DNA of 64,000 nucleotides from NCBI GenBank assembly GCA_046331705.1, contig JAXLQJ010000002.1, positions 78,370-142,369 on the forward strand, read 5' to 3'. Below, piece after piece: positions 41,758-62,640 of the stretch (its first letter is position 1; each line of letters starts with the position of its first letter). The position numbers were made by a program, and so were the translations under genes. A model generated the notes under the pieces. It saw only the letters and a program-made list of their open reading frames with translations. It was not told where the DNA came from and made no database searches. The DNA is from a bacterium (GTDB lineage: Bacteria > JADJOY01).

Positions 41758-43212
41758 ATGCGCGTCCTACTCGTCCACCCCCACCTCTTCCATCACCCGA
41801 CGGCGACCGTTCCGAGCGGGCTCGCGTGGCTGGCGGCGGCGCTGCGGGCGCGTGGCGCCCAAGTGGCTCTGCTCGATCTCGCCTTCGTCTGGAACCGCAG
41901 CCGCGTCATCCCCGCGGCGATCGGCGAGCTCGAGCCCGACGTCATCGGCATCGGCGTCGCGCACCTCGACAACGAGTGCGCGTTCCACTCGATCACGTTC
42001 CTTCCGCAAATCCGCTGGGTGATCGATCGCATCCGCGCCGCCAGCCGCGCCCCGATCGTGGCAGGCGGCTTCGGCATCACGCAGTGCGCCCGCGACGTGC
42101 TCACGTACCTGGGCCTGGCGCACGGCTTCCAGGGCGGCGACGTGGCGGAGGCGGCGCGCTGGATCGAAGCCGTCGGCGGACGCGACGATCGCGCCGAGGT
42201 GGCCGGCGCCATCCGCTGGACCGGTGCCGCGTACGAGAGCTTCACCGCGGCCGCGCGACCGACCCACGGGCTGCCCATCCCGTGCTCGGCAGCGCACGAC
42301 CTCGTCGACTACTCGCCGTACCGGCGGACGTCGGCTGCGGCCGTGGTGCCGATCGTGCTGGATCGGGGCGGCGTTCCGGCGCGGCGACCCGCGGCCGAGA
42401 TCGCGGACGAGCTCGGCGCGCTCGCCGCAACGCGTTCGGTTTCCCGCGCCTTGCTCGCGGGCCTGACGGTGGGGCTCGATCCCGCCCACGACGACGAGCT
42501 GCTCGAGACCTTGGCGAGCCGTGGCGCGCCGCTCGCCACGGAGATCCAGCTCGCGGCGCGCGCCGCGACTCGCGAGCGGGTCGCGCTGCTGCGCGCCAGC
42601 GGCGCCCGCGCGATTCGGCTGCGGCTCGCGGCGCCGGCCAGCGGCGAGGTGTCGCGCCCATCTCGGCTCGCCGCCGAGCGCGATGCGCTTCCGCGCGCGC
42701 TCGAGCGCATCGGCGGCGCCATCCCCATCCGGCTCGAGGTTGCGATCGGCGGGCTCGACGAGTCGGCAGACTCACTCGCACGAACGCTCGCCCTCGTCGA
42801 TGCGTTGCACCCGCGGCCGGCTGCGATCGAGCTCGTCCCCGGCGTCCGGCTCTGGGACGAGCCCGGCGAGGGCGCCGTCATCCGGCGCGGCGGCTTCGCC
42901 GGTGACTCGCCGATCTGGCCGCGCTTCGGCTTCGCCGCCGAGATCGAGTCGGGCTTGGCGGAGCGCCTCCGGCAGTTCGCCTCGACGCGCCCGGGCGTGA
43001 GCGTGGACTCGACGCCTACGCGCCGTGGCAACGCGTTGCCCACGCGATCGGGCGCCGCTGCGGGGTCTGGCCCGCGTGGCTCGCGGGCTCGGCGCTGGCC
43101 GATCTCCCGAAACGCCTGCGACGCGCGTGTATCGAAAGAGTACCGTTCCGCATGCAGCCGATGTAACATCCGTCGACGCCACGATCGAAACCGAGACGAA
43201 CGTCGAGCATCC
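41758..43212 (+). CDS. B12-binding-domain radical-SAM-like protein lacking the CxxxCxxC motif; 3' boundary unresolved
   Basis: N-terminus MRVLLVHPHLF...GLAWLAAALRARGAQVALLDL resembles the B12-binding domain of class B radical SAM enzymes, but no Cys triad follows; codon bias decays near 43000 yet the frame has no stop before 44298. Confidence 0.4.
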
Positions 43213-44298
43213 ATGGCCTCGCCGACCACGACCACGGTCCTCACGCAGGAAGAGATCAAGGTTCCCTGGAAGCTGTTCCGCGGGAACCATCAGCGCAGCG
43301 GCCAAGTCGCCGCGATGAATCCGGTTCGTCTCACCGGCGTGCGCTGGGAGCTGCGCGTCGGTCGCGTGACGTGGTCATCGCCCGCGATCGACGACGACAC
43401 CGTCTACATCGGCCTCGAGGACGGCGCGCTGCTGGCGGTCGACGCACGTTCCGGCAAGCGCGTGTGGCGATATCGCACGGGCGGCGCCGTGCTGAGCTCG
43501 CCCGCCATCGATGGGGAATTGGTGCTGGTCGGATCCGAGGACCAGAACCTGCACGCCGTCGACCGCAAGGTCGGCGTGGCGCGCTGGACCGCGCCGCTCG
43601 GAAGCGCGGTGACCAGCTCGCCGCTGGTGAAGGGCGGGCGCATCTTCGTGGGTTCGTGGGACGAGAACCTCTACTGCCTCTCGGAGAAGGACGGCGCGGT
43701 GCTGTGGAGCCATCCCACCGGCGGGCGCGTGTGGAGCTCGCCTGCGCTAGCCGACGACACCGTGGTGGTGGCATCGGCGTCCGGCTACATCCTGGCGCTC
43801 GATCCCCGTGACGGCTCACGGAAGTGGCGCTTCAAGGCCCGCAACCGCATCTACTCGACGCCCGCCATCGCCCACGGAATGGTCTTCGTGGGCTGTCACG
43901 ACGGCAACCTCTACGCCATCGACATGAAGACGGGCAAGCGGCGCTACGCGGTGGAGACCAAGGACAAGATCCGGTCGTCGCCGGCGGTCGTGGAAGGCAA
44001 GGTCCTGTTCGGGTCCGAGGACGGGAAGTTCCATTGCATCGACGCGCTGAGCGGCGAGCAGCGCTGGGTCTTCGATGCCAAGGGCGGCATCGACTCGTCG
44101 CCCGCCGTGAGCGGCGACACCGTCCTCTTCGGCACGCTCGCCAACCGCGTGCACGCGCTCGACGTGAACAACGGCCGCGAACGCTGGGGCTTCTCCACCG
44201 ACGACTGGGTCGATTCCAGCCCGGCGCTGTGGGGTCGATTGATCGTGTTCGGGTCGTACGACGGCCACCTCTACGGGCTCGAGTTCGACACCGAGTGA
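43213..44298 (+). CDS. PQQ-like beta-propeller repeat protein (BamB-like fold)
   Basis: Repeated SSPA(I/V)..G.(V/I)(Y/F).G..DG.L.A(V/L)D propeller blades; ATG at 43213 follows an AT-richer stretch; in frame with the upstream ORF. Confidence 0.6.
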   Translation: MASPTTTTVLTQEEIKVPWKLFRGNHQRSGQVAAMNPVRLTGVRWELRVGRVTWSSPAIDDDTVYIGLEDGALLAVDARSGKRVWRYRTGGAVLSSPAIDGELVLVGSEDQNLHAVDRKVGVARWTAPLGSAVTSSPLVKGGRIFVGSWDENLYCLSEKDGAVLWSHPTGGRVWSSPALADDTVVVASASGYILALDPRDGSRKWRFKARNRIYSTPAIAHGMVFVGCHDGNLYAIDMKTGKRRYAVETKDKIRSSPAVVEGKVLFGSEDGKFHCIDALSGEQRWVFDAKGGIDSSPAVSGDTVLFGTLANRVHALDVNNGRERWGFSTDDWVDSSPALWGRLIVFGSYDGHLYGLEFDTE

Positions 44299-44326: not shown

Positions 44327-44638
44327 TCAGTCCTCGCCTTCGCCTTCGTCCTCGTCCAGGAAGAATCGACGCTTGCGGGCGTAGAACTCCTCCAGCTCGC
44401 GTCGCGCCATCCAGAAATCGCCACCATCGAGGCCGACCGCCAGCGCCAGCTCCTTGGCGCGGTTGACGATCGTGACTTGCTGCCACTCCTCCTCGAAGAT
44501 GTCAATCTCGAGTCCGTCCAGCAGCCCGCGCAACGTGCGGCCGAACTCGGCCGACTCCATGTGCGACGCGCGCTGCCGCTGGGTCCCGAGCCAGCTCGGA
44601 TGGGCTCGATCCACGTCCTTGGGGTCGTTCGTGCTCAT
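44327..44638 (-). CDS. small acidic hypothetical protein (103 aa)
   Basis: ORF 44327..44779 trimmed to ATG 44638 (MSTNDPKDVDRAH); acidic C-terminal tail DEDEGEGED. Confidence 0.45.
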   Translation of the reverse strand: MSTNDPKDVDRAHPSWLGTQRQRASHMESAEFGRTLRGLLDGLEIDIFEEEWQQVTIVNRAKELALAVGLDGGDFWMARRELEEFYARKRRFFLDEDEGEGED

Positions 44639-44879
44639 GTTCGATCTCGATTCGCGCGTTCCAGGGTACGAGCGCCGTCGCGGTCGAGCAAGCGACGACG
44701 CCCGTGCCACGGCTCGAGCGCCAGAGGCAGTCGGCGCGGTCTCGCGCGCCGGGCCGCAAGCGCCTTCGGGCCTTCTCACGACCAGGGGCCCATGCTAGGT
44801 TTGCGTGCTTTGCCGAGGCTTCGGCGTCCGATCCGATCGGGTCGTGGGCGCCACTGGATCGCCCGGCTCGGAGGCTTCC

Positions 44880-44969
44880 TTGGGTAGCGTGGTCAAGAAG
44901 CGGCGCAAGAAGATGCGGAAGCACAAGTACAAGAAGCTGCTTGCCCGCATGCGCCACCGCAAGAAGTGA
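44880..44969 (+). CDS. bS22-like small basic ribosomal protein (AURKAIP1/COX24-type), 29 aa
   Basis: TTG start behind GGAGG; encodes MGSVVKKRRKKMRKHKYKKLLARMRHRKK, closely resembling actinobacterial bS22 ([25 protein letters not shown], recalled); below the ORF-track size cutoff. Confidence 0.6.
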   Translation: MGSVVKKRRKKMRKHKYKKLLARMRHRKK

Positions 44970-45011
44970 ACGCCGCGCTTCGCTCTTCCTCGAGGCGCTC
45001 ACCCACGTCAG

Positions 45012-45043
45012 GCCGCACCGCGCGCGAACGCGCCGGGTGCGGC
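45012..45043 (+). terminator. GC-rich imperfect hairpin downstream of the bS22-like ORF
   Basis: GCCGCACC ... GGTGCGGC arms around a GC-rich loop; no U-tract. Confidence 0.25.
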
Positions 45044-45184
45044 AGCGATCGTCCCTCGGCTTAGCCCCGGCGCCGTTGGCGATCGGTTGCGGATCGCGAG
45101 CGATCCCACGCCACGCGTCGGTTGTGCGGTGACGATCGTGAGCGCTACCATCGACCGTCCACCCAGGCCCTGAGGACGCGAACG

Positions 45185-46234
45185 ATGGAGCCCACGCGCA
45201 TTCGACGTTGCCACGGACACGATGGAACCGAGCTCCACGTCGAGGAGTACGGCAGCGGCGCCCCCATCGTGCTCTGCAATGGCGTCGTCTGCACCATCGG
45301 CCCCTACTGGCAATTCTTGATTCGGCACCTGGCCACGCTGGGCCGGGTGATCGCCTGGGACTATCGCGGACACGGACGATCCGGGGTACCGCGAGACCTC
45401 GAGGCCTGCGCGATCGGGGACCACGTCCGCGACCTCGGCTGCGTCCTCGACGCCACGGGCGTCGAGGACGCCGTGCTCATCGGCCACAGCATGGGTTGCC
45501 AGGTGATCCTGGAGGCCTATCGGCAATTTCCCGAGCGTATCCGCGGGCTAGTTCCGATCTGCGGCACGTACGGCCGGCCTTACCGGACCTTCTACGGGAA
45601 GGACTTCCTGGAGCCGTTCTACGACCCGATGCTGCGGGAGGTGCGACGGCATCACGAGCTCGTTCGGCAGATCGCCGACGTCGTGAAGCGCACGCCGATC
45701 CCGCAGCTGGTGGCACGCGCCGGCGCTGTCCACTGGTACCTCGCCCCGTGGAGCTCGATGGACGCGTACTTCGAGCACGTGTTCTCGATGAACACGGAGT
45801 TTCTGCTCACCGTGGTGCGACGCATGGGCGAGCACAGCGCAGAGGACCTGTTGCCGCACGTGGACGTTCCCACGCTGATCGTCGCCGGCGCCAAGGATCC
45901 GTTCACGCCCCCTTCCGTGGCGTGGGAGATGCACCGCCAGATCCCCGGCGCGGAGATCCTGGTGATCCCGAACGGCACCCACGTGGCACAGCTCGAGCAC
46001 CCGGACCTGGTGGGGCTGCGAATCGAGAAGTTCGTCTCCGACCACGGCTTGCTCTCGAGGCGCGGGCGAAGCAGCGGCGCGTCCGCCCGGGAGCGGGCCA
46101 ACGGCCGCGAACGCGCCGCGCCTCGTCGCCGGTCGCGTGCCACGCGGCCCGCCGGTGAGGATGGACGCGAGCGCGCTCCGGCACGACGGCGACGAGCGGC
46201 GCGCGGCGCGCGCGTGTCCTCACGTCTCGCTTGA
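45185..46234 (+). CDS. alpha/beta hydrolase with Arg-rich C-terminal tail
   Basis: Nucleophile elbow GHSMGC; HGRSG oxyanion region; ORF 45122..46234 trimmed to ATG 45185. Confidence 0.75.
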   Translation: MEPTRIRRCHGHDGTELHVEEYGSGAPIVLCNGVVCTIGPYWQFLIRHLATLGRVIAWDYRGHGRSGVPRDLEACAIGDHVRDLGCVLDATGVEDAVLIGHSMGCQVILEAYRQFPERIRGLVPICGTYGRPYRTFYGKDFLEPFYDPMLREVRRHHELVRQIADVVKRTPIPQLVARAGAVHWYLAPWSSMDAYFEHVFSMNTEFLLTVVRRMGEHSAEDLLPHVDVPTLIVAGAKDPFTPPSVAWEMHRQIPGAEILVIPNGTHVAQLEHPDLVGLRIEKFVSDHGLLSRRGRSSGASARERANGRERAAPRRRSRATRPAGEDGRERAPARRRRAARGARVSSRLA

Positions 46235-47853: not shown

Positions 47854-48969
47854 TTACTCGAAGATGTCTCGAACGCGATCGAAGAACCCACGATCCTCCG
47901 GCGGCGAGGCCCCATCCTCGCGCGCGAGCGCCTCGTAGAGCTCGCGCTGCCGGGCGTTCAGCTCGTCGGGAACGTGGACGCGAATGCGTACTTTCTGATC
48001 GCCGCGGCCGGCGGCGCTGCCCGACGGCATCCCCTTGTTCCGCAAGCGATAGATGCGCCCGGGCTGGGTCCCGGGCTGCGTCTTCATGCGGATCGGACCA
48101 TCGAGCGTGGGAATCTGCACCTCGGTACCGAGCGCCGCCTGCGCGACGGTCAACGTCAGGTCGTAGATGAGGTCCGCACCCTCGCGCTTGAACTGGGGAT
48201 GCTCCTGGATCTGCACCACCACGTAGAGATCGCCGGCGCCGCCCCCGGCGATCCCCATCTCGCCCTCGCCCTGCAGCCGGAGCCGGCTCTCGTGCTCGAC
48301 GCCCGCAGGCACGCGCACCTTGAGCTCGTGGCGCGCCTTCACCGAGCCCGCGCCCTGACACCGCGAGCACGGATCTCGCACGATTCGTCCTCGCCCCTCG
48401 CATTGCGTGCAGGGCTTCGAGACGCTGAAGAAGCCTTGCTGCAGGCGAACCTGCCCCGAACCGCGACAGCTCGGGCACGTCGTCGAGCCGGTGGCGCTCG
48501 CGGCGCCGGTGCCATTGCAGTGGGCGCATGGCCGGCGGCGCGGCACACGGACGCGCTTCTCCGTGCCGAACGCGGCTTCTTCCAGCGTGATCTCGAGGTT
48601 GTAGCGCAGGTCGGTGCCACGCTCGCCGCGTGACTGCGAGCCCGGGCCGCGGCCACCGAAGATGTCGTTGAAGAGATCGCCGAAGAGATCCTGGAAGTTG
48701 CCCGGTCCTTGCGGGCCGGCCCCCGGACGGGCACCACCGAAGGGGCCACCCGCCGAGCCAAAGCGATCGTAGTTCGCCCGCTTCGGCGGATCGCTGAGCA
48801 CCGAGTACGCCTCGGAGAGCTCCTTGAAGCGCTCCTCTGCCGCTGGATTCCCGGGATTCTTGTCCGGATGACACTCGTGGGCGAGGCGGCGATACGCCTT
48901 CTTGAGGTCATCGGGCGTCGCGTTCCGGGACACCCCCAGCACTTGGTAGTAATCGCGGGCCGCGCTCAC
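47854..48969 (-). CDS. dnaJ: molecular chaperone DnaJ
   Basis: J-domain DYYQVLGV...HPDKNP; four CxxCxGxG zinc-finger repeats; start set at GTG 48969 behind GGAGG, giving a GTGA overlap with the upstream Hsp70-like stop. Confidence 0.85.
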
Positions 48970-50756
48970 GACGACAGCACCTCCGGCGTCGCCGACGAAC
49001 GAAGCCACGGCGCGAGCGCCCTGGCGGCGTGCTGGATTCGCTCGAGATCGGCGCTCGCGAGCGCGCTGCGAGCGCGCTCCATCGCCACGCCGAGATCACG
49101 CTCCGACGCCGCGTTTCCGCGCAGCCGTCCCTCGCCCAGGATGCGCGCGGTGGTGAGCAGCTGCCCGTCCAGCATCCAACGGGCGCGCAACAACCCCTCG
49201 TGGCCGCGTTGCGATTCGAGCAATCGATCCAGCTCGTGCGTGATGTCCGCCAGCGCGGGAACGGCGCCCTCCAGCCGCTCCAGCGCAGCGGTCTCGAGCG
49301 AGCCCGGCGCGCGCACGCCCACCGCGAGCCGCCCGTCGGTACTGGCCTCGACGACCAGCTCGACCCGACGGAAGTCGTTCCGCGGGCCGGAATCGGACGC
49401 CATCCGGAACGAGGCCAGCGAGGCTCCGAGCTCCGCCCGGTCGACCTCGCCCTCGATGAGCTCGACCGGCTGCCGTCCGAGGGCCGAGACCGGATACGGC
49501 CCGCTCACCGTCGCCGGCAGCGGCGCGAAGCGATCGACGAACCGCAGCACCCCGCCGTCGGGATTGCGGACGCCGATGGCGTGAGGCGCGACCTGCAAGA
49601 GGAAGACGTCCGGGACGTCGCCCTCGCGGCGGGCTCCGTGAAGACACGCACCCACCGCACCCCACGGCGTGCGGTCCGGGTCGATCCGCACCTCGCGCGC
49701 CGCGCGAGCGCGCAGCGCTTGCGCGACGAACGTGATCGACGGCGCGCCGCCCACGACCTGCCAGCGCGACACCCGATCCGGCGCCGTGCCCTTGAGCACC
49801 GACGCCAGCTCCTCCTCGAACGCGCCGAGCAACGGCCGCGCGAGCTCGCGAAGCCGATCCCCGTCGACCTCGACGTCGAGGTGGCGCGGGCCGGCGGCGG
49901 TGAGCGCCAGGTACGGCACCGTCACCCGCGTCGGCACCTTGGGTTGCGACCGCAGACGCGCCAGCCCGTCCTCGCACGCGGCGCGCAGCCGTGCCACCGA
50001 TCGCGGCCGCATGCCGGCATCCAGGATCAGCTCGCCCTCGAAGGGCGCGGCGAGGAACCGCATCATGCGGACGAGAAGATCGTCGCCCAGCCCAGCCACC
50101 CTGCCGCCCATGCGCTCGAGCTCGATCGCCTCGTCGGAAAGATCGATCAGCGCCGCGCCGACGCTCGCGCTCTCGTGCTCCACCAAGCCCACGGTTCCCC
50201 GCGCTCCCGAGTCGTGGAGCGCGGTGGCGATCGCGGCGGCGGCCGGCAACGTGTGCACCTGCTCGAACCCCGCGGCGCGCGCCGCCAACGCGACGCGCTC
50301 GCGCGCCGTCGCGCCGTACCACGTCGGATAAGCGATCGACGCGACGCCGATCGAGCGTCCGATCCAATCGCTGGCTCCCTGACGAAGCCGCGCGAGCAAG
50401 CAGGCGACCAACGCCGTGACGCTCCACTCCGCGCCCCGGATGCCGAGCTGCGGCCCGGTCGCGTCGAGGCGCGGCTGCGGCAGCGAGAGCAACGCCGCGT
50501 CGTCGGACGGGACGGTGCGCGCGAGCCCCAGCGCATGCACGAGACGAGCCGCCGCCCCGTCCGGATCGGAGACCGACCGCGCGCGCGCATCGTGGCCGAC
50601 GCGAACCAAGCCGGCGGCGTCCACGTGGACGATCGCCGGCCCCTCCAACGCCGTGGCGGCCAGACGCTGCATGCGCTCGCCCTTGCCGCGCATGACCACG
50701 CCGGCGAGCTGGCGATCGGAGAGATCGATGCCGAGTATCGGCTCGTGCAACCCCAC
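48966..50756 (-). CDS. Hsp70-family (actin-like ATPase fold) protein, highly divergent
   Basis: [17 protein letters not shown]-terminus (compare DnaK GIDLGTT); [15 protein letters not shown]...[16 protein letters not shown] matches the Hsp70 adenosine motif, but phosphate-2 DLGGGTFD is not recognisable. Confidence 0.6.
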
Positions 50757-50933
50757 CTCGATCCCTCCGGAAGACGGCGTCTTCCGATCCTACGATGGTC
50801 CCCGCCAGCGAGCCACCGCGACGCGTGGAACGCGACTCGGCCGCCCCGGCGCGTGCTTCAGCTCGGACGTCCCCGCAACGCGCGCGAGGCCACGACCGAC
50901 GAGCCCGGGCGGCGGCCTCGGCACCTGCCTCCG

Positions 50934-51884
50934 TCAGTCATCGTCCGAGGAATCCTCGCCATTTCGGGTCGAAACCTTGGGCGCCGGCCCACCGAGCGCG
51001 ACGCGATCGGGAGCCGGCTTGGGTGCCGCCTTGGCGACGGCCACCATCGCGGGCCTGAGCAAACGGTCCTTGTAACGATAGCCCTTCACGTACTCGCTGG
51101 CGACGTGTCCCGGTGGCACGTCACCGCTCTCGACCTGGGTCATCGCGTCGTGCAACTGGGGATCGAACACGGTGCCCACCGAAGAGAAGGGCTCCACCCC
51201 GAACTTCGCGAGCGTGTGCAGGATCTGGTTGTGGGTGATCTTGACGCCCTCGGCGATCGAGGCGACGTCGTTGGCTTGCGAGGCGGCGCCGAGCGCGCGC
51301 TCCAGGTTGTCGATCGCCGGCAGCATCTCCCGGAGCAGCTCCTCTTGCGCGTACTGAACCGCATCGGCCTTGTCCTTCGCCGAGCGGCGTCGATAGTTCT
51401 CGAAATCCGCTTGAAGCCTCAGCCGCGCCTCGTAGCTCTTCTCACCCTCGGCCTTGGCCTCGGCGAGCTGCTTCTCGACCTCGGCCAAGTGGCGCTCGAG
51501 CTGCTGAAGGAGCTTGGCCGGGACCTTCTTGCCCTTCTTCTTGCCGAGCTCGGCATCCTCCGACTGTCCCTTGTCCGGCGTGGGCTCCGAACCCGAGCCC
51601 GCTTCCTCGCCGATGCCGGCGTCGCCACGTCGCAGCTGCTCGAGGAACGCCTCCGCGAGCGCGGCCGCTTCGGCCACGGCCTTGGACTTGTGGGCACCAT
51701 CCTCGCCAGCGCCGCCGGCGGGCGCGGGCTCGGCGCCGGGCTCCTGCGTGATGCCCGGTGCGTCGTCGTTGTTGGACGGCGGGTTGCGACTGGCATCTCG
51801 TTCCGACAAGGACAGCCTCTCTTCCCTGGCAAGGGTTGCGAATGGTGCTCGTACGCGTCCTGGCGGCGGCCCGTCCGCTCGCAA
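50934..51884 (-). CDS. grpE: nucleotide exchange factor GrpE
   Basis: RLQADFENYRRRSAKDK signature; start uncertain (long Ala/Pro-rich N-terminus). Confidence 0.8.
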   Translation of the reverse strand: MRADGPPPGRVRAPFATLAREERLSLSERDASRNPPSNNDDAPGITQEPGAEPAPAGGAGEDGAHKSKAVAEAAALAEAFLEQLRRGDAGIGEEAGSGSEPTPDKGQSEDAELGKKKGKKVPAKLLQQLERHLAEVEKQLAEAKAEGEKSYEARLRLQADFENYRRRSAKDKADAVQYAQEELLREMLPAIDNLERALGAASQANDVASIAEGVKITHNQILHTLAKFGVEPFSSVGTVFDPQLHDAMTQVESGDVPPGHVASEYVKGYRYKDRLLRPAMVAVAKAAPKPAPDRVALGGPAPKVSTRNGEDSSDDD

Positions 51885-51908
51885 CGGACGGCGAACGGTG
51901 CACCGCGA

Positions 51909-52970
51909 CTAGCGCGGTTCCAGGAATCGGCTGATGAGCTGCGCCGTGTATTCGACCATGGGGATGATTCGCGAATAGTCCAGCCGCGTGGGGCCGAGGA
52001 TTCCGATCGAGCCAATCACTTGAGGCCCGCGTCGATACGGCGACGACACCACGACCAGATCGTCGACTCCGTCGATCCCGGCCTCCGAGCCGATCGAGAC
52101 GCACACACCGCCGGCGACGCGCGCGCGATCGAGGATGTTCACGATCCGCTCCCGATCCTCCAGCGCCTCGATCAGCGCCCGGACTCGCTCGGGCTCGCTG
52201 AACTCGCGGTGCGCGAGCAGGCTCGAGGTGCCTTCGACGAACACCTCGCCTTGACCCTCGTTCTCGAACACGCAGCGACTGACCGCGAGAATGCGGCGCG
52301 AGAGATCATCGATCAGCTCGCGGTCGCGGGCCAGCTCGTCCAGCAGACGGTCGCGCACCTGGTCGAGCGGTGCTCCCGTGAGGCGTTCGCAGAGCAGCTC
52401 CGTGAGCCGATTCAAGCGGGTCTGGGCGACGTCCTCGTCGAGGCGCACGATGCGATTCACGATCACGCCCGTCGACGACACGAAGATGACCAGGATCTCC
52501 GCGGGCCGCAGCCGCACGAAGTCGACGTGCTGGAACACCGCGTCGCCCAGCATCGGCGCCACCGCCATCCCCGGGCAACGCGAGAGCCGCGACAACGCCC
52601 GCGACGCGTCCCGCAAGCACGCCGCGAGCCCACCCTCCGAGCTCGCCGTCACCTGGTTGAGCGACTGGCGATCCGCGCGGCTCAGGGTGTAATCCGCCAT
52701 GCGCGTCTCGACGAACCAGCGAAACGCGTGCTCGGTGGGCACCCGGCCGGCCGACGTGTACGGATGCGACAGCAACCCGGCGTCCTCCAGGTCCATCATC
52801 TCGTTTCGGACCGTGGCCGGGCTCACGTCGAGCCCGTGCGCGCGAGTCAGGGTTCGCGAGCCCACCGGCTCACCCGAGGCGATGTAGGTCTCGATCACCA
52901 GCTCGAGGACCCGGCGGCTGCGCTGTGGCAGCTCGTCGATGGATCGCGGCGTGCGGCTGGTCGTGGTCAT
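51909..52970 (-). CDS. hrcA: heat-inducible transcription repressor HrcA
   Basis: N-terminal winged helix RSRRVLELVIETYIASGEPVGSRTL; overall HrcA-like length and organisation; directly upstream of grpE. Confidence 0.85.
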   Translation of the reverse strand: MTTTSRTPRSIDELPQRSRRVLELVIETYIASGEPVGSRTLTRAHGLDVSPATVRNEMMDLEDAGLLSHPYTSAGRVPTEHAFRWFVETRMADYTLSRADRQSLNQVTASSEGGLAACLRDASRALSRLSRCPGMAVAPMLGDAVFQHVDFVRLRPAEILVIFVSSTGVIVNRIVRLDEDVAQTRLNRLTELLCERLTGAPLDQVRDRLLDELARDRELIDDLSRRILAVSRCVFENEGQGEVFVEGTSSLLAHREFSEPERVRALIEALEDRERIVNILDRARVAGGVCVSIGSEAGIDGVDDLVVVSSPYRRGPQVIGSIGILGPTRLDYSRIIPMVEYTAQLISRFLEPR

Positions 52971-53277
52971 GACTGAGCGGTGCGGGAGCGAGAGCGCAAC
53001 TTTGAGACGCGGTTAGCGTCAAGCTATCAGTCGCCATTTCGGCATGTCAAGCAAGACTTCCGCCATCGCGTCCGGCAAAACTCGATTGATTTCGACACCT
53101 TATGGCTTGACGTCGGGGCGCGATCCGGGTCATGCCCGACGCACCACCGAGCCGATGTTGCACATGCGGCGCCAACTCCTCGCCGCCACGCCACGATCCC
53201 GCGGGGTCATGCGCCGAGATGAAACGCAGGTTTGGGAATTGCCAGTCGCGGTCCGGCGCGGGTATGGTCGGCGCAGC

Positions 53278-53583
53278 ATGGCTCGCCCAACCAAGCGGAT
53301 CTCGGAGCGTGAAAGCGCCGAGATCCAGCTCCTCGATACGCTCGAAGAAGTGGCACGCCAGGTCGGCGTGGAGGTGGTTCACGACCACATCCGCGCCGAG
53401 GGCTTCATGTCGCGTGGCGGCTCGTGTCGCTTGCGGGATCGCTGGATGATCCTGCTCGACCGCAAGATGCCCACGTCGGACAAGGTGGATCTGCTCGCCA
53501 CCGAGCTCCGCCAGTGGCCGATCGACGGGGTCTTCGTCCCCCCCGCGATCCGCCACTTGCTCGAGCCGCGCTCCGCTTCCTGA
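53278..53583 (+). CDS. hypothetical protein (101 aa)
   Basis: Tail of ORF 53044..53583 from ATG 53278 (MARPTKRISERESAEIQLLDTLEE); followed by a short GGGTGC/GCACCC hairpin. Confidence 0.35.
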   Translation: MARPTKRISERESAEIQLLDTLEEVARQVGVEVVHDHIRAEGFMSRGGSCRLRDRWMILLDRKMPTSDKVDLLATELRQWPIDGVFVPPAIRHLLEPRSAS

Positions 53584-53718
53584 CCGGGTGCTGGGACGTG
53601 CTGACCGGCACCCCGACGCACCACCGATCCCCACCAATCGTTTCATCCGTCGCGGCGTACGCGCCCCAGGGGCGCGTCCAGCCGACGCGACGCGATAGCC
53701 ATGCGAAGAGGAGCCACG

Positions 53719-55353
53719 ATGGGTGACCTCATCCTTGCGATCGACCAGGGAACCACCGGCACGCGAGTCATTGCGTACGACCGACGAGCACGCCAGGTCG
53801 CGCAATCGTACCGCGAGTTCACCCAGTACTATCCGCGCCCCGGCTGGGTCGAGCACGACGCCGACGAGATCTGGGAGAGCACGCTCACCACGCTTCGCGA
53901 GTGCCTCAAGCGCGCCGACGCGGATCTCTCGCGCGTGCACGCCATCGGCATCACCAATCAGCGCGAGACCGTGGTGCTCTGGGATCGCGCCACGTCGCGG
54001 CCCGTGCATCGCGCGATCGTGTGGCAATGCCGGCGCACCGCCGAGCTCTGCAACCAGCTGAAGGCCGAGGGACGCGAGCGCCTATTCCGTCGCAAGACGG
54101 GCCTCGTGCTCGATGCCTACTTCTCCGGAACGAAGCTGCGCTGGATGCTCGAACAAAACCCCGTTCTGGAAGCGCGCGCCAAGGCTGGCGAGCTGGCTGC
54201 CGGCACCATCGACTCGTGGCTGATCTGGAAGCTGACCGACGGCGAGAGCCACGTCACCGATCCGACCAACGCCTCGCGCACGCTCCTCTACGACATCCAC
54301 GAGCGCGACTGGAGCGATCCGCTCCTCGGCGTGCTGCGCGTGCCGCGCGCGGTGCTGCCCCAGGTGCGCCGGTCGAGCGGCGAGTTCGGGCGCGTCAGCG
54401 CCAAGCTCGGGCTGGGCGGCACGCCACCGATCAGCGGCGTCGCCGGCGATCAGCAAGCGGCGCTCTACGGTCAGGGTGCGTGGTCGCCAGGCATGGGCAA
54501 GAACACGTATGGAACCGGATGCTTCCTGCTCATGAACACGGGCACCGAGCTGGTGCACTCGAAGCGCGGCTTGCTGACCACGCTCGCGTGTGACGCCGAC
54601 GGGCGCCCCGCCTATGCCCTCGAGGGGTCGGTCTTCATCGCCGGCGCGGCGCTGCAATGGTTACGCGACGAGCTCGGCCTGATCTCGAGCGCGGCCGAGT
54701 CGGAGGAACTGGCACGCGCGGTGGACGACACCGCGGGCGTCTACATGGTTCCCGCATTCGTCGGGCTGGGGGCGCCGTACTGGGACATGGGCGCCCGCGG
54801 CGCGCTGGTGGGGCTCACGCGTGGCGCGAACCGCAAGCACGTGGTCCGCGCCACCCTCGAGTCACTCGCCTATCAGACCAAGGACGTGTGCGATGCGATG
54901 ATCGCCGACGCCGGGCTCGACCTGAGGGAGCTACGCGTCGACGGCGGCGCCTGCCGCAACGACTTCCTGATGCAGTTCCAGGCCGACGTGCTCGGTGTGG
55001 CCGTGGACCGCCCCACCGTGATCGAGACCACGGCGCTCGGCGCCGCGTTCCTGGCGGGGCTCGGAAGTGGATTCTGGAAATCGCCGAGCGAGGTAGCCGG
55101 AGTGCGCGAGACCCATCGTCGCTTCGAGCCGGCGATGGCGCGAGCGCGCGCCGCCGAGCTCTACGAGGGGTGGAAGCAGGCGGTGGCGCGGGTGCGCAGC
55201 GCCACGCCAGCGGCTGCGCCGGCGAAACCCGCGCGGCGCGCTGGGCCGGCGAGTGCGGCCAAGCGGGCGAGCGCGCCCAAGCCGCGCGTCACACGGGCCG
55301 CTTCCAAGGCAGCCAAGCCGGCGCGCACCGCCAAGCGAGGCCGCAAACGCTGA
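53719..55353 (+). CDS. glpK: glycerol kinase with Lys/Ala/Pro-rich C-terminal tail
   Basis: LILAIDQGTTGTR N-terminus; FGGY-kinase motifs throughout; GAAGAGGAG RBS; about 45 extra basic C-terminal residues. Confidence 0.85.
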   Translation: MGDLILAIDQGTTGTRVIAYDRRARQVAQSYREFTQYYPRPGWVEHDADEIWESTLTTLRECLKRADADLSRVHAIGITNQRETVVLWDRATSRPVHRAIVWQCRRTAELCNQLKAEGRERLFRRKTGLVLDAYFSGTKLRWMLEQNPVLEARAKAGELAAGTIDSWLIWKLTDGESHVTDPTNASRTLLYDIHERDWSDPLLGVLRVPRAVLPQVRRSSGEFGRVSAKLGLGGTPPISGVAGDQQAALYGQGAWSPGMGKNTYGTGCFLLMNTGTELVHSKRGLLTTLACDADGRPAYALEGSVFIAGAALQWLRDELGLISSAAESEELARAVDDTAGVYMVPAFVGLGAPYWDMGARGALVGLTRGANRKHVVRATLESLAYQTKDVCDAMIADAGLDLRELRVDGGACRNDFLMQFQADVLGVAVDRPTVIETTALGAAFLAGLGSGFWKSPSEVAGVRETHRRFEPAMARARAAELYEGWKQAVARVRSATPAAAPAKPARRAGPASAAKRASAPKPRVTRAASKAAKPARTAKRGRKR

Positions 55354-55407
55354 ACCGAACGAGCGACGTGGCTTCGGCGCGCGGCCGCCACGGCGCCGCG
55401 GCTGGAC

Positions 55408-57930
55408 TCAGAAGATCCCCTTGATCCAGTCCCAGGCGCTGTCGTCGCGCTCCTTGGGGCTCGTGGACCGGCTGCCGTTTGGCGGGGCCGCATCACGCGA
55501 TCCGCGACCCGCACCCGCGGCGCTCTCGTCGTCGCCGCGAACCTTGTCGAGCAGCGTCGGATGCAGCGGACACGTACGGCTCGGCTGGGTGCCTTCGAGA
55601 AAGGGCAGGCGCTCCGTCCGCGGGCACGCTGCGGTCGCCAGCAAGCCCGTCTCCGGATCGATCTCCGCGAAGGAGATCCCGCGCGGCGCCTCCAACTCGT
55701 CCGCCGGCCACCACGACGTGTGCGTGACGTAATCGACCCAGATGGGTAGCGCCGCCTTCGCCCCGACCATCCCGACCGGCTGGTTGTTGTCGCGGCCCAC
55801 CCAGACGACGACCACGCGGCCCGGCAGGTAGCCCGCGAACCAGGCGTCGCGGAAGTCGTCGGTGGTGCCCGTCTTGCCGGCAGCGGGACGATCGAGCCCG
55901 AGCGTCCGCGCCGACGCTCCCGTCCCCGTCTGCAGCACCTCCTCGAGCGTCCAGGTGACGAGATACGCGATCTCGGGATCCATCACGCGCGTCGCCCGCG
56001 GCCGCGTGCGGGTCAGCACGCGGCCATTGGCGTCCACCACCGAGCGCACGGTGGTGGGAGAGGTGCGCAGGCCACCGGAGGCCAGCACGCCGTACGCGCG
56101 CGCGACGTCGAGCGGAGTCACCTCCGCCGCACCCAGCGCCAGCGACGGCACGTTGGGCAGCTTGCCGCCGAAGCCGACCGCTTCGAGCTGCTTGCGCAAG
56201 GCGGCCGTCCCGACCTGCTGCCAGATCCGGACCGCCGGCGTGTTGAGCGAGAGCGCCAGCGCCTCGTGAAGCGGCACGACGCCGCGATACTCGCCGTCGT
56301 AGTTGGTGGGGCGCCACGTCTGCCGATCGTAGCGGATCGTGATCTCGCGGTCCTCGACCTCGCTGGCGAGCGTGGGATGGAAGTCGCGCTGTCCCGCGAG
56401 CGCACACGCGTAGAGAAACGGCTTGAAGAGCGAGCCGGGCTGGCGGCGACTCTTGACCGCGCGGTTGTACGGCGCGCTCCGGTAATCGCGACCGCCGACC
56501 AGCGAGCGGATGGAGCCCGTGTCGGGGTCGAGCTCGATCAACGCCGCCTGCAGTCGCGCGGGGTCGCCCTCGGGATGGTGCTCGTCGCGACGCTTCTCGA
56601 GCGCCGCCAACCCCTCGGCTACCGCGCGCTCCGCCTCGTGCTGGAGGATCGGATCGAGCGTGCTCATCACGCGCAAGCCGCCCGCGTTGAGCGTGTTGGT
56701 GCTGTAGGTGGATTCGAGCTCGTCGCGCAGCAGATCGACGAAATAGGGGGCGCCCTCGGGGGGACCGGGAGCGTAGGACTGGCTGAGCGGCTCGCGCGCG
56801 GCGCGCTCCGCTTCCTCGGGGCTCAGCCGATGGGTCTTCACCATGCGGTCGAGCACCACCGCGCGGCGCTCGCGCGCCGCGTCCGGGTGCCGGAAAGGAT
56901 CGTAGCGGCCCGGCGACCGGATGAGCCCGCCCAACATCGCGCACTCGCCGAGGCTCAGGTCCTCGACGGGCTTGCCGAAGTAGTAGCGCGCGGCCTCGCC
57001 CACCCCGTAGACGCCCATGGCGCCGCGCTGCCCGAGGTAGATGGCGTTCAGGTACACGCCCAGGATCTCGTCCTTGTCGTAGAGCGCGTCCAGCACCAGC
57101 GCCATCGCCGCCTCGCGGACCTTGCGCGACAGCGTGCGTTCGGGAGTCAGGAACAGGTTCTTCACCAGCTGCTGCGTGATCGTGCTGCCGCCCTCTTGCA
57201 CCGAACCGGAGCGCAGGTTGGCGACCAGCGCGCGCGCGATCCCGATCGGGTCGACGCCCGCGTGATCGAGGAAGCGAGTGTCCTCGGTGGCGACGATCGC
57301 GTTGACGAGCGCGCGCGGGACCTTGCCGACCTCCACCAGCTCGCGCTCCTCCCAAACCCGTTCGAACAAGCCGCTCACGACCTCCGGTTCGAGCACGTAG
57401 GGCGGCGTGGCCTTGCGATCGGGAGCGACGACCTGCGTCACGCGTCCGTCGTCGAGCGTGAGCACGACGCGGTACGCGGGCAGCTTGCGATCGCCGTACG
57501 CGAGCGCACGCACCCCGATCTCGACCCGATCCGGCTGGACGTGGAACTGGCCCGAGCGAACGGGCGTGGTATCGACGCGCCGATACCCGGCGTTCACCAG
57601 CCGGTCGAGGATCTTGAAGCGCGTCACCTCGAGGCCGCGCGCGAGGACTGGCGGCTCGGCGTAGACGCGCGACGGCAGACGGAAGCGCTGTCCCTCGAAT
57701 CGCGCGATGATGTCCTGCGAGATCGAGAATCCCCACACGAGCGCGAGCGCCGTCCCGTAGAGGACCACGTACGGCAGCACGCGCCGGATCAGACCGCGAC
57801 GCTTGGAGCGCCGCCAGAGATCCGTCTGCTCCGTCGCCGGGCGCCGGCCGCGTCCGCGCCCTGCTTCCCGCGTCGTCTTCGCTCTACGCGATCGGGCCGC
57901 CACCAGCTCGCCTGGAACCGCCGCGCGCAC
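55408..57930 (-). CDS. penicillin-binding protein 1A family (bifunctional glycosyltransferase/transpeptidase)
   Basis: GT51 motifs EDTRFLDHAGVD and GGSTITQQLVKN; transpeptidase SLFKPF and KTGTT motifs. Confidence 0.85.
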   Translation of the reverse strand: MRAAVPGELVAARSRRAKTTREAGRGRGRRPATEQTDLWRRSKRRGLIRRVLPYVVLYGTALALVWGFSISQDIIARFEGQRFRLPSRVYAEPPVLARGLEVTRFKILDRLVNAGYRRVDTTPVRSGQFHVQPDRVEIGVRALAYGDRKLPAYRVVLTLDDGRVTQVVAPDRKATPPYVLEPEVVSGLFERVWEERELVEVGKVPRALVNAIVATEDTRFLDHAGVDPIGIARALVANLRSGSVQEGGSTITQQLVKNLFLTPERTLSRKVREAAMALVLDALYDKDEILGVYLNAIYLGQRGAMGVYGVGEAARYYFGKPVEDLSLGECAMLGGLIRSPGRYDPFRHPDAARERRAVVLDRMVKTHRLSPEEAERAAREPLSQSYAPGPPEGAPYFVDLLRDELESTYSTNTLNAGGLRVMSTLDPILQHEAERAVAEGLAALEKRRDEHHPEGDPARLQAALIELDPDTGSIRSLVGGRDYRSAPYNRAVKSRRQPGSLFKPFLYACALAGQRDFHPTLASEVEDREITIRYDRQTWRPTNYDGEYRGVVPLHEALALSLNTPAVRIWQQVGTAALRKQLEAVGFGGKLPNVPSLALGAAEVTPLDVARAYGVLASGGLRTSPTTVRSVVDANGRVLTRTRPRATRVMDPEIAYLVTWTLEEVLQTGTGASARTLGLDRPAAGKTGTTDDFRDAWFAGYLPGRVVVVWVGRDNNQPVGMVGAKAALPIWVDYVTHTSWWPADELEAPRGISFAEIDPETGLLATAACPRTERLPFLEGTQPSRTCPLHPTLLDKVRGDDESAAGAGRGSRDAAPPNGSRSTSPKERDDSAWDWIKGIF

Positions 57931-57948
57931 CCGCGGACGGGTGTGCGC

Positions 57949-58893
57949 TCAGCGCGAGCCGCGGGGGCTGGCCGAGCCGCCCAGCTCCTTGAGCTTCTCG
58001 CGCGCCATGCGGGCCTCTTCCGTCGACGGATAGGAATCGACGAGCTTGAGCAGCACCACCCGCGCATCACCGGTGTAGTTGAGGCTCGCGAAGCAAAGAC
58101 CCTGCTTGAGCAGCGCCGCCGGAACCTTGTCGCTCCGGGGATAGTTCTTGATGAGCTTGTCGTAGGCGGGCAAGGCCCACTCGAACTGACGCTCGTTGTA
58201 GAACGTCTCGCCGACGTAGAACTGCGCGTCATCCGCCAGATCTTCGTCCGGGCGGCCGGCCAAGTAGGCGAGAAACGCGTTCCGCGCATCCTTGTAGCGA
58301 CCCGCTTGGAGCGCGCTGTAGCCGGTCTGGAACTGCTGGGATGGCGGAAGCGCCGCTGGCGACACCGGCGCCGCGGGTGCGGTCGCGGCTGGCGCAGGGA
58401 CCGCGGGCGCCACGGGTGTGGGCGCCGTCGCGGTGGGGGACGGCGGCATCGGGGTCACCCCGACCGGCGCCAACGTGCCCGCATCGGGTGGCTTCACACC
58501 GAGGCGCGTCTCGAGCTCGATGACGCGGTTACGCACCTCGAGAAGCTGCGCCATGACCTGCTCGTTGAACGCGTCGCTGAGCTGGTCGTCGAGGCGCCCC
58601 TTCGGCGTCCGACGCTCGTCCACTTGGCCGCGCAACGCGCGCAGGTCCGAGTTGAGGCGCTCGGAGTCCGCGGAGAGATCGGCGTTGCGAGTGCGGATCT
58701 CCTGGAGCTCCTTCGACTGGGCCGCGCGCTCGGCCTCCAGCCGATCGACGCGCATCAGCAGCGAGGTGTACTCGGCCTTGCTCACGCAGCCCGCGAGCGC
58801 TCCGACCAGCAGGAACGTCCCACACACGCGGGGCGCGCGCGCCCCACGGGCAATCGCGCGAATCGACGTGTCGAACCGTATGCGCTCGTTCAT
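57949..58893 (-). CDS. cpoB: Tol-Pal system protein YbgF/CpoB
   Basis: Lipoprotein-like N-terminus; coiled coil; C-terminal TPR region (FYVGETFYNERQFEWALPAYDKLIKNYP); position immediately downstream of pal. Confidence 0.7.
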   Translation of the reverse strand: MNERIRFDTSIRAIARGARAPRVCGTFLLVGALAGCVSKAEYTSLLMRVDRLEAERAAQSKELQEIRTRNADLSADSERLNSDLRALRGQVDERRTPKGRLDDQLSDAFNEQVMAQLLEVRNRVIELETRLGVKPPDAGTLAPVGVTPMPPSPTATAPTPVAPAVPAPAATAPAAPVSPAALPPSQQFQTGYSALQAGRYKDARNAFLAYLAGRPDEDLADDAQFYVGETFYNERQFEWALPAYDKLIKNYPRSDKVPAALLKQGLCFASLNYTGDARVVLLKLVDSYPSTEEARMAREKLKELGGSASPRGSR

Positions 58894-58970
58894 GACGCGG
58901 CGAGGATAGATGCTGTGGATGGTCCTGTCAGCCCACGGCCATCACCGAGGACGCCGTGAGCTGCGCGCGC

Positions 58971-59519
58971 TCACTGACCCAGCACGCGGAACTGCGCCCG
59001 TCGATTCTTCGAGAACGCCGCCTCGTCGTGCCCCACCACCGCCGGCAGCTCTTCGCCGTAGCTGATCGTCTCGATCCGCGACGCGGAGATGCCGAGCTGC
59101 ACCAGGTAGTTCTTCACCGCGCCCGCGCGCTTCTGGCCGAGCGCCATGTTGTACTCGTTGGTGCCGCGCTCGTCGGTGTGGCCCTCGATCTCCACGCGCA
59201 GCGACGGCGTGCTGCGCAACGTCTGGTAGTCCTCCTGCAACGTGGCGCGCGCATCCGCGGAAAGAGTCGACGAGTCGTAGTCGAAATAGATCCGCGCGAG
59301 CCCCGGCGGATCGATCGTGCCGCGACCGGCGCCCTCGGTGTCGAACGGTGTCGAGGAGACCATCGGCGACGCCTTGTACGGCGTGGTGGGCGTGGTCGAC
59401 GAGATGGGCGGCGACATGTCGGGGGGCTGAGCCGGCTGCTCCTTGGAGCACCCACCCGCCACCGCCAGCACCAGCGAACCAACGCAGCACAGACGCTTCA
59501 CTTCGTCCCGCAAGCTCAT
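58971..59519 (-). CDS. pal: peptidoglycan-associated lipoprotein Pal
   Basis: Lipobox LAVAGGCS; OmpA-like C-terminal domain (IEGHTDERGTNEYNMALGQKRA...NRRAQFRVL); start set at ATG 59519. Confidence 0.85.
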   Translation of the reverse strand: MSLRDEVKRLCCVGSLVLAVAGGCSKEQPAQPPDMSPPISSTTPTTPYKASPMVSSTPFDTEGAGRGTIDPPGLARIYFDYDSSTLSADARATLQEDYQTLRSTPSLRVEIEGHTDERGTNEYNMALGQKRAGAVKNYLVQLGISASRIETISYGEELPAVVGHDEAAFSKNRRAQFRVLGQ

Positions 59520-59798
59520 TCCGACATCTCCTCGACGACCGTCGTGGGCCGTCACCAGCGCCGCGCGATGCTTTCCACCTCGGAAGCCAGCGCGGTCACC
59601 CTTTTCATCGTGCGGATCTTCGTTGCCACCGAGAGCCGAGCCGCTTGCCGCCGTCCGTGCGCGGTGCTCGTCGAGCTCGATGCATGGGTTACCGGAGAAG
59701 CCGCGACCACGTCAATGCAACCAAGCGCCTCCTGACCATTCCTTGACCGAAAAACCAACACGCGTGCAGTGAGCCTCGCGTCGCGAGCACCGAGCGCC

Positions 59799-61154
59799 TC
59801 ACGGCGCGTGCTGCATCGGTCCCCAATCGGGCTGCAGGTCCATGGCGCGGCCATCGGTGAGCCTCACGGGTTTCCCACCGAGAGCCGACACCAAGAACAG
59901 GCTCGACGAGCCGCCACCACCCGAGCTGTAAACGAGCGTGCGGCCGTCCGGCGACCAGCTTGGATGCTCGTCGGATCCTGGCCCGTCGCTGACCCTGCGG
60001 ACTCCGGAGCCGTCGGCATTCATCACGTAGATCCGCCACGGGCCCGGGTTCGCCTCGAACGCGATCATCTGACCGTCCGGCGAGAACCTCGGCGAACCGT
60101 GGTCCATCCCCATCGTCGAGATCTTGCGCTGGCCGGATCCGTCCGAGTTCATCAAGTAGAGCTGGGGACGCCCCGCGCGATCGGAGACGAAGACGATCTG
60201 GCTACCGTCGGGCGACCACGATGGCGAAACGTCGAGCGCGTCGCCCGAGGTGAGCTTGGTGAACCCGGACCCATCCACACCGATGATGCAAATGTTTCCG
60301 TCCTTGCTGAACGCGACGCGACGGCCGTCGGGCGAGAAGGCACCGCCCGTGTTCAGCCCTCCGCTCGCGATCAGGCTCGGGCGCCCCGTGGCCGCGTCTT
60401 GGATCCAGAGGTCCGGCTTGTAGCTTCGATACGACGTGTAAAGAATCGAGCTTCCGCTCGGCGACCAATCCGGCATCATCGCGATCTTGTCGTCGAACGT
60501 GAGGCGCGTGAGGTTGCTGCCGTCGGTGTCGATGACGAAGATGTCCTTGCGACCTGCGTGGCCGCGCGTCGATGAAAAGACGATGCGCGTTCCGAACGCG
60601 CCCATCTTGCCCGTGGTCGCCTCCAGCACACGGTTCGCGAAATCGTGGACCGCCGCTGCCAGCTGGCTGGGCGGCACTTGGTATTTCCTACCGAGGATCT
60701 GCCGCGCGTCGGGCACCTTGTGGAGCCTGAGCTCGAGCGCGTAGGCGCCGCCGCTCTGCTCGGCGGTCGCCTTGATGAGGAAATCCGCGCCGAGCGTCCG
60801 CCAAGGCGCGAAGTCGATCTCGCCGTCGACGACCGGTGCCGCCTGCGCGTCCTCCGCGTACGAGCCTTCGGGTATCCAGTGAAAGAACCCGGAAAGCTCG
60901 AGATCGCGAACCAGGAGGTCGTGCATCTTCTTGAGCTGCGGGTCGCCGGGCGAAAGCCCAGGCCCGACCTTCCATGCCGCGTGCGCAAAATGCCACGCAG
61001 CGCCGCCCTCGACGGAGACTCGCCACGGTGTCACCGCTGCATCGTCGTTCGTCGCTTGGCCAAACGCCGCGCCGGCACGGAGCGTCGCCAAGACGGCGAG
61101 CAGACCCACGACGATGCCACGCGCTCTCGCGACTCGAGGCCCAGGTCGTTTCAT
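59799..61154 (-). CDS. tolB: Tol-Pal system beta-propeller protein TolB
   Basis: Signal peptide; repeated DWSPDG/FSPDG propeller blades. Confidence 0.85.
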   Translation of the reverse strand: MKRPGPRVARARGIVVGLLAVLATLRAGAAFGQATNDDAAVTPWRVSVEGGAAWHFAHAAWKVGPGLSPGDPQLKKMHDLLVRDLELSGFFHWIPEGSYAEDAQAAPVVDGEIDFAPWRTLGADFLIKATAEQSGGAYALELRLHKVPDARQILGRKYQVPPSQLAAAVHDFANRVLEATTGKMGAFGTRIVFSSTRGHAGRKDIFVIDTDGSNLTRLTFDDKIAMMPDWSPSGSSILYTSYRSYKPDLWIQDAATGRPSLIASGGLNTGGAFSPDGRRVAFSKDGNICIIGVDGSGFTKLTSGDALDVSPSWSPDGSQIVFVSDRAGRPQLYLMNSDGSGQRKISTMGMDHGSPRFSPDGQMIAFEANPGPWRIYVMNADGSGVRRVSDGPGSDEHPSWSPDGRTLVYSSGGGGSSSLFLVSALGGKPVRLTDGRAMDLQPDWGPMQHAP

Positions 61155-62164: not shown

Positions 62165-62640
62165 TTCCGCTTCTCGCTCTTCCCCGTCGTCGCTGCCGCC
62201 GAGGCGGTCGTGGGCATGGTGACGAGCCCGACACCCGTCACGCCGGCGTCCTTGAGCGCCGACATCAGCGCGACCACCTTGCCGTAGTCGACTTTCTCGT
62301 CGCCCCGCAGAAAAACGTCCTTCTTGGGGTCGTTCTGACGAGCGGTCTGGACGAACTGCACCAGGCCATCCAGGTCTTGCGGCTTGCTGTCACGCAGCAG
62401 GAAATACGTGCCCTTGGGATCGATCGTGATCACGATCGGATCGCGCGTGTCCGTCGTCATCGGTTCCGCGGGCTTGGTCTGCGGCAGGTCGACCTTCACT
62501 CCTTGATTGATGTCCAGCATCGGCGCCGAGACCATGAAGATGATGAGCAAGACCAGCATCACGTCGACCAACGGCGTCACGTTGATCTCGGCCATCTGCG
62601 CGCGGCCTCGCGCAGGGCTACGACTGAGCTGGATCGACAT
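62161..62640 (-). CDS. tolR: biopolymer transport protein TolR/ExbD
   Basis: INVTPLVDVMLVLLIIFMV TM motif typical of ExbD/TolR; 4-nt overlap with tolA start. Confidence 0.8.
   Translation of the reverse strand: MSIQLSRSPARGRAQMAEINVTPLVDVMLVLLIIFMVSAPMLDINQGVKVDLPQTKPAEPMTTDTRDPIVITIDPKGTYFLLRDSKPQDLDGLVQFVQTARQNDPKKDVFLRGDEKVDYGKVVALMSALKDAGVTGVGLVTMPTTASAAATTGKSEKRK

Follow-up and report, generated by a model that had tools for sequence, protein, structure and literature searches.

A TTG-initiated gene assigned to the ribosomal protein bS22 family in an uncultured, Tol-Pal-bearing bacterial lineage

The stretch of DNA analyzed here (64,000 nucleotides, hereafter the window) carries at positions 44880–44969 of the forward strand what is almost certainly a real gene of the bS22 family of small ribosomal proteins. 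It is best explained as a stand-alone gene, probably expressed from its own putative promoter and with a role in the ribosome that is assigned by homology. The family is curated by both Pfam and NCBIfam and the exact protein is deposited in GenBank, so that the identification is correct and already known.

Gene and predicted product

The open reading frame comprises 29 sense codons, from a TTG at 44880–44882 to the TGA stop at 44967–44969, and is preceded by a GGAGG sequence at a distance of 5 nt (CTTCC). The initial annotation had described a 29-codon frame with a TTG start behind GGAGG, and its coordinates and translation agree exactly with ours.

44880–44969, forward strand: coding sequence of 29 codons, from TTG to TGA, assigned to a small ribosomal protein of the bS22 type
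44870–44874, forward strand: Shine-Dalgarno sequence GGAGG, read directly from the sequence and invariant in all six related genomes

The predicted product, (M)GSVVKKRRKKMRKHKYKKLLARMRHRKK, contains 10 Lys, 6 Arg and 2 His, with a mass of 3.7 kDa and a computed pI of 12.0. Lysine and arginine make up 16 of the 29 residues (55%; 62% when His is added). These values lie within those that characterize bS22, namely about 29–33 residues, 55–65% Lys plus Arg (both ranges taken from published values) and a pI of about 12 or higher. The fraction of lysine among the Lys and Arg residues is 0.62, versus 0.00–0.49 in six neighboring genes of this genome of approximately 68% GC. The lysine content thus runs against the local trend, and is unusually high at this base composition. 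Because stop-free stretches are common in several frames of such a GC-rich window, the open frame is by itself uninformative.

Family assignment

Searches with bS22 and AURKAIP1 models, which the initial annotation had proposed as a check, place the peptide above the cut-offs of both families. It scores 34.9 bits (E 1.2e-8) against the NCBIfam equivalog NF047430, "30S ribosomal protein bS22", a narrow margin of just 0.9 bit over the cut-off of 34, and 30.6 bits against Pfam PF08213 (COX24_C), for which the cut-off is 23. A local family profile built from homologues outside the lineage of the window matched one of the 1039 stop-to-stop segments in the six-frame translation of the window, with a score of 46.5 bits and an E-value of 1.6e-13; the top score of the same profile in 20 simulated windows was 7.3 bits. 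The family match of the 29-residue frame is therefore far above chance.

A search of the PDB with the peptide aligned residues 1–28 without gaps to the bS22 chains of Mycobacterium and Cutibacterium, including 5O5J, 5O61 and 8CRX, with E-values of about 5e-4 each. The match of the single peptide to mitochondrial mS38 was weaker, and mS38 chains were retrieved with the family profile at E-values of 3e-5 to 2e-3. In an alignment of 15 family members, the peptide is 59% identical to bS22 of M. smegmatis and C. acnes, and contains all of the positions that are invariant in the set (K6, K7, R8, R9, K10, M12, K14, K16, K19 and L20). The N-terminal motif MGSV(I/V)KKRRK and Lys16, both of which distinguish bS22, are present; in M. 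smegmatis, this lysine is reported to contact the backbone of h44. The proposed bS22-like, AURKAIP1/COX24 identity of the frame is thus borne out by both family models and by the gapless alignment to solved bS22 chains.

In the PDB, neither the peptide (E ≤10) nor the profile (E ≤1) recovered any chain whose name places it in a ribosome of Flavobacterium, Porphyromonas or Borrelia. The peptide is therefore assigned, on the strength of its sequence, to the actinobacterial and mS38 type and not to the subtype of Bacteroidota and Borrelia. The likeness that had been claimed to actinobacterial bS22 holds, whereas that to the Bacteroidetes protein does not extend beyond structural correspondence, with no match to a chain so named in the PDB.

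Conservation in related genomes

The related set of six consists of the window and five other genomes from its uncultured lineage. All five carry the reading frame, the TTG and the GGAGG:

L001: GCA_964392195.1
L002: JGI 3300006092
L012: GCA_016713535.1, "Deltaproteobacteria bacterium"
L014: GCA_964650975.1
L015: GCA_964450125.1, the closest relative

These loci were reached via the neighboring proteins, and the local order of genes is common to all six: a B12-binding-domain gene, a beta-propeller gene, a divergently oriented hypothetical gene of 101–104 codons, the small reading frame and an alpha/beta-hydrolase gene. The longer loci run on into NYN, GIDE, dnaJ, hsp70, grpE and hrcA.

Among the relatives, DNA identity is 86–100% over the reading frame, versus 49–76% over the 180-nt flanks. 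The variable columns of the frame fall 4, 2 and 9 times at the first, second and third codon positions, respectively, and L015 differs from the window by four synonymous and no non-synonymous changes. Summed over all pairs, there are 13 amino-acid differences in the proposed frame, as compared with 32–40 in each of the five other frames. This pattern shows purifying selection on the proposed frame, which alone is conserved, and alternative frames and antisense reading frames were rejected on the same counts. GGAGG is kept in all six genomes although the 5′ untranslated region around it varies. Conservation of the frame and of the ribosome-binding site in related genomes, put forward in the initial annotation as a further check, was thus found throughout the set.

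The gene in the window starts with TTG, whereas the homologues from other phyla that were read with an ATG start have it at exactly the position of this TTG. An upstream in-frame GTG at 44805 was considered as an alternative start and rejected, as the region 5′ of the TTG is poorly conserved and contains insertions and deletions whose lengths are not divisible by three.

Expression signals and flanking elements

Several putative elements flank the gene:

44773–44801, forward strand: promoter-like element, TTCTCA (44773–44778), a 17-nt spacer and TAGGTT (44796–44801); putative, from conservation only
45012–45043, forward strand: GC-rich hairpin GCCGCACC...GGTGCGGC, 43 nt after the stop codon, in MFE and centroid folds
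45122–45151, forward strand: promoter-like element TTGTGC-18-TACCAT ahead of the alpha/beta-hydrolase gene (45185–46234), from conservation

In five aligned loci, conservation 5′ of the Shine-Dalgarno sequence is confined to one block, CTTCTC(a/t)CG-N11-(a/g)TGCTA, which also occurs in L015. In the window, the spacer of the corresponding element contains a TG at 44793–44794, and TTCTCA-17-TGcTAGGTT plausibly represents a −35 box followed by an extended −10 box. A strict consensus scan for promoters and terminators called neither for this gene. The block is kept in L014 despite a 5′ untranslated region that is approximately 50 nt shorter, which argues against a conserved structured leader. A leader of this kind, as a means of autoregulation, was also disfavored by an RNAalifold covariation term of only −0.6 kcal/mol. 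Rfam gave no match at the gathering threshold over the whole window, which has no 16S rRNA, and none at E ≤1 over 44600–45250.

The Shine-Dalgarno region (CCGGAGG) and the start region (CCUUGG) could pair with each other (44868–44886, forward strand), and TTG fits this pairing better than ATG. The pairing is invariant among the relatives and so offers no covariation. As a candidate regulatory element the hairpin was rejected, since its energies of −5.6 to −8.6 kcal/mol (z-scores of −1.6 to +0.6) are no better than those of shuffled sequence.

Downstream of the gene, the 45012–45043 hairpin lacks a run of T and has a z-score of only −1.1. GC-rich hairpins also occur downstream of the gene in L001, L002 and L012, in non-homologous sequence, and only that of L012 is significant (z −3.35); a terminator function of the hairpin in the window is possible but weakly supported. 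Ahead of the hydrolase gene, the window, L001 and L002 have in common the block GGTTGTGCG…GAGCG.TA.CATCG, within intergenic sequence that is otherwise variable. With a separate promoter-like element before the hydrolase, the bS22 gene looks monocistronic rather than a leader reading frame for that gene.

Genomic neighborhood

The features that surround the gene are the following:

44330–44638, reverse strand: 103-residue hypothetical protein (GenBank locus tag U0610_02080) with an acidic tail (…LDEDEGEGED), divergent from the bS22 gene in all six genomes
47854–52970, reverse strand: chaperone cluster hrcA, grpE, hsp70-like and dnaJ, near the genes for an FGGY kinase and for PBP1A and near the Tol-Pal cluster
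57952–62640, reverse strand: Tol-Pal cluster of CpoB-like, Pal, TolB, TolA and TolR

No gene of translation is linked to the bS22 gene in the window, its neighbors being the lineage-specific 103-residue hypothetical and the alpha/beta-hydrolase. The 103-residue protein has no match in Pfam, and its eight database homologues all belong to the lineage of the window; the bS22 genes of other phyla do not have it as a neighbor. The acidic neighbor was considered as a partner or chaperone of bS22 and rejected, as its family is confined to the lineage and the only evidence that ties it to bS22 is the gene order shared by these genomes in general.

Gene order across 47854–62640 (reverse strand) is the same in related MAGs. 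HrcA is 74–90% identical to the proteins of four lineage MAGs, after which identity falls to 54% for one match; the best matches that carry an organism name are approximately 40% identical, apart from one of 77% in a Deltaproteobacteria MAG. This steep fall indicates that the lineage is deep and poorly sampled.

Upstream, in the region 41758–44298 (forward strand) and especially at 43011–43121, the B12-binding-domain gene is apparently frameshifted. Residues 1–424 of its orthologue in L001 match frame 1 (41758–43053), and residues 407–443 match frame 3 (43011–43121). As a consequence, the frame-1 reading frame continues without a stop into the beta-propeller gene (start at 43213), giving an apparent reading frame of 846 residues. 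Misassembly, pseudogene formation or true divergence may each account for this. The two adjacent genes have also diverged to very different degrees: when 41758–44295 of the window is compared with 7091–9590 of L001, the beta-propeller protein is 94% identical and the adjoining B12-binding-domain protein 47%.

Proposed role and alternative explanations

The gene product most probably sits in the 30S subunit of the organism from which the window derives, by analogy with the family members of known structure. In these, bS22 takes the form of a bent, basic helix that is enclosed by h27, h44 and h45 of the 16S rRNA beside the decoding center, and contacts the 23S rRNA (H67–H70 region) to form an additional bridge between the subunits. 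In M. smegmatis, the protein is dispensable; its loss makes the cells more sensitive to aminoglycosides owing to a Lys16-mediated change in the h44 drug pocket. The gene in the window would be transcribed from the promoter-like element approximately 80 nt upstream and translated from the TTG by means of the GGAGG. The peptide of 3.7 kDa, 62% of which is basic, is predicted by homology to fold into a bent helix that would enter the 16S rRNA pocket of h27, h44 and h45 adjoining the decoding center. The invariant Lys16 and the other lysines and arginines of the peptide would touch the phosphates of the rRNA, and its C-terminal end would extend to the H67–H70 region of the 23S rRNA and add an inter-subunit bridge. 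Loss of the protein would be expected to be tolerated and to increase aminoglycoside sensitivity, as in Mycobacterium smegmatis.

Independent support for a ribosomal role of the family outside Actinomycetota comes from two Dehalococcoidia MAGs, L008 (2693–3955) and L010 (2699–3938). In both, the homologue lies inside the S10 operon between rplW (uL23) and rplB (uL2), with rplC upstream and rpsS downstream. The two homologues score 60–66 bits on NF047430, and the copy in L010 also starts with TTG.

Function mainly away from the ribosome, as a free cationic RNA-binding or antimicrobial peptide encoded by a real PF08213 gene, is improbable. It would accommodate the position of the gene, alone and away from ribosomal genes, and the conserved, weak TTG start, which is unusual for a protein needed at one copy per ribosome; in addition, synthetic bS22 of Cutibacterium acnes has been reported to inhibit bacterial growth and cell-free translation in vitro. 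All structurally examined members of the family, however, are bound to the ribosome, the residues conserved in the peptide of the window are those that contact rRNA, including Lys16, and there is neither a signal peptide nor a nearby export gene. The homologues within the S10 operon of Dehalococcoidia likewise argue against this reading. The TTG and the stand-alone arrangement could also be taken to mean that bS22 is here an optional component of the ribosome, its supply tuned by its own promoter and the weak start codon. Some of the ribosomes might then contain it only in particular circumstances, for instance where aminoglycoside-type compounds in the environment have to be tolerated. We consider this unlikely; conservation of the TTG in six genomes and the isolated position of the gene are all that speaks for it.

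The short reading frame lies on the same strand as the alpha/beta-hydrolase gene, 215 nt 5′ of it, and the two are paired in all six genomes, as would be expected of a regulatory leader peptide (an upstream reading frame) for the hydrolase. Such a role is very improbable, given that the peptide is conserved across phyla next to other neighbors (a response-regulator-like gene, ribosomal genes and others) and that the sequence separating it from the hydrolase gene varies considerably and contains insertions and deletions. The GC-rich hairpin 3′ of the frame and the conserved promoter-like element at 45122–45151 also separate it from the hydrolase. As to a chance reading frame in GC-rich DNA, a conserved non-coding element or an antisense gene, the region is indeed free of stops in two further frames, one sense and one antisense, in five of five genomes, as expected at 68% GC. 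These explanations are refuted by the profile score of 46.5 bits, compared with at most 7.3 bits in simulated windows, by the predominance of third-position and synonymous changes, by the 32–40 amino-acid differences in the five other frames as against 13, and by the absence of an Rfam match. Given frame-specific conservation together with the synonymous bias, a chance frame, a gene on the antisense strand and an element that is non-coding throughout are all excluded. A stand-alone gene of the bS22 family with a probable ribosomal role is the reading that is retained.

Comparison with known bS22 proteins and related small-subunit proteins

The closest counterparts of known structure are the actinobacterial bS22 proteins of M. 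smegmatis (MSMEG_0945), M. tuberculosis (Rv0550B) and C. acnes (5O5J, 5O61, 8CRX), which belong to the same NF047430 family. The identity is 59%, the alignment of residues 1–28 has no gaps, and MGSV(I/V)KKRRK and Lys16 are common to both. The proteins are similar in size (29 residues in the window, 33 in actinobacteria) and in charge; the C-terminus in the window is 3–4 residues shorter and its tail differs (ARMRHRKK against RRTRVQRRKLGK). Like its actinobacterial counterparts, the gene stands alone and is easily overlooked by gene callers. The host of the window is not a member of Actinomycetota but belongs to a double-membraned, Tol-Pal-bearing uncultured lineage.

The bS22 proteins of Bacteroidota (Fjoh_1533 of F. 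johnsoniae, and P. gingivalis) and of Borrelia burgdorferi (bb0822) are also highly basic and approximately 30 residues in length. They are reported in the same h44/h45 pocket, and are often unannotated; the Borrelia gene bb0822 has a GUG start, and its product was missed by shotgun mass spectrometry. Peptides of this kind are expected to be cut into small fragments by trypsin. They have been described as structural counterparts with low sequence identity, that between F. johnsoniae and C. acnes being 37%.

In mitochondrial mS38 (AURKAIP1 in mammals, Cox24 in yeast), the conserved C-terminal domain corresponds to the peptide of the window (PF08213). The mitochondrial proteins are 70–200 residues long, with an N-terminal extension, and are nuclear-encoded and imported into mitochondria, whereas the bacterial protein is the bare domain. 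The peptide represents the homologous domain and not a member of mS38 proper. According to the literature, the corresponding small-subunit pocket is occupied in eukaryotes and archaea by eL41, a very small basic protein that consists of one unbent helix of approximately 25 residues, in contrast to the bent helix of bS22.

Distribution across phyla

Experimental observations of bS22 come from Actinomycetota, Bacteroidota and Borrelia, the latter two being double-membraned and studied by cryo-EM. The Borrelia report predicts further cases that have gone unnoticed because the genes are short and have non-canonical start codons. The NCBI name AURKAIP1/COX24 domain-containing protein is also carried by close homologues in Deltaproteobacteria and Thermodesulfobacteriota MAGs. 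A scan of one genome per GTDB species yielded at least 8 confirmed homologues among the 600 stretches listed; those confirmed among the matches listed include strain NaphS2, Desulfobacteraceae, Nitrospiraceae and Dehalococcoidia/Chloroflexi. The taxonomic distribution obtained in this way is a lower bound.

The presence of the gene in a Tol-Pal-containing genome had been put forward as phylogenetically interesting. The Tol-Pal cluster is real (57952–62640, reverse strand), but bS22 was already on record from the double-membraned Bacteroidota and Borrelia, and the occurrence of homologues in Desulfobacterota, Nitrospirota and Chloroflexota further shows that the surprise was overstated. The gene adds one more data point to a wide occurrence of PF08213-type bS22 outside Actinomycetota, double-membraned lineages included, with a location in the S10 operon in Dehalococcoidia. 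This distribution bears on a possible ancestral origin of bS22 in bacterial ribosomes, with loss in E. coli-like lineages, and on whether mitochondrial mS38 descends from it.

Public records and annotation

The gene had been regarded as unannotated. A protein identical over all 29 residues is, however, already present in GenBank under the domain name of the family (MFN7950485.1, "MAG: AURKAIP1/COX24 domain-containing protein [bacterium]", on a contig of 352 kb). Under the current NCBIfam model, this record could be given the name "30S ribosomal protein bS22". The practical value of the finding lies in annotation, and it offers little new biology.

The expectation that such genes are easily missed was confirmed in the related genomes: no gene is called at the locus in L014 or L015, and in L001 and L002 it is called with false extensions (75 and 91 residues, respectively). 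Missed calls and false N-terminal extensions of this kind arise because the start codon is TTG. Database homologues were searched for with a 54-residue in-frame extension of the peptide. Among the 101 homologues, position 1 is Leu in 75 and Val in 5 (80/101), nearly all of these with false upstream extensions, and the extended entries reach 39–92 residues. In one database homologue, P0003, part of the peptide is duplicated in tandem (…LGSVVKKRRKKMRKHKHMLGSVVKKRRKKMRKHKHRKLL…).
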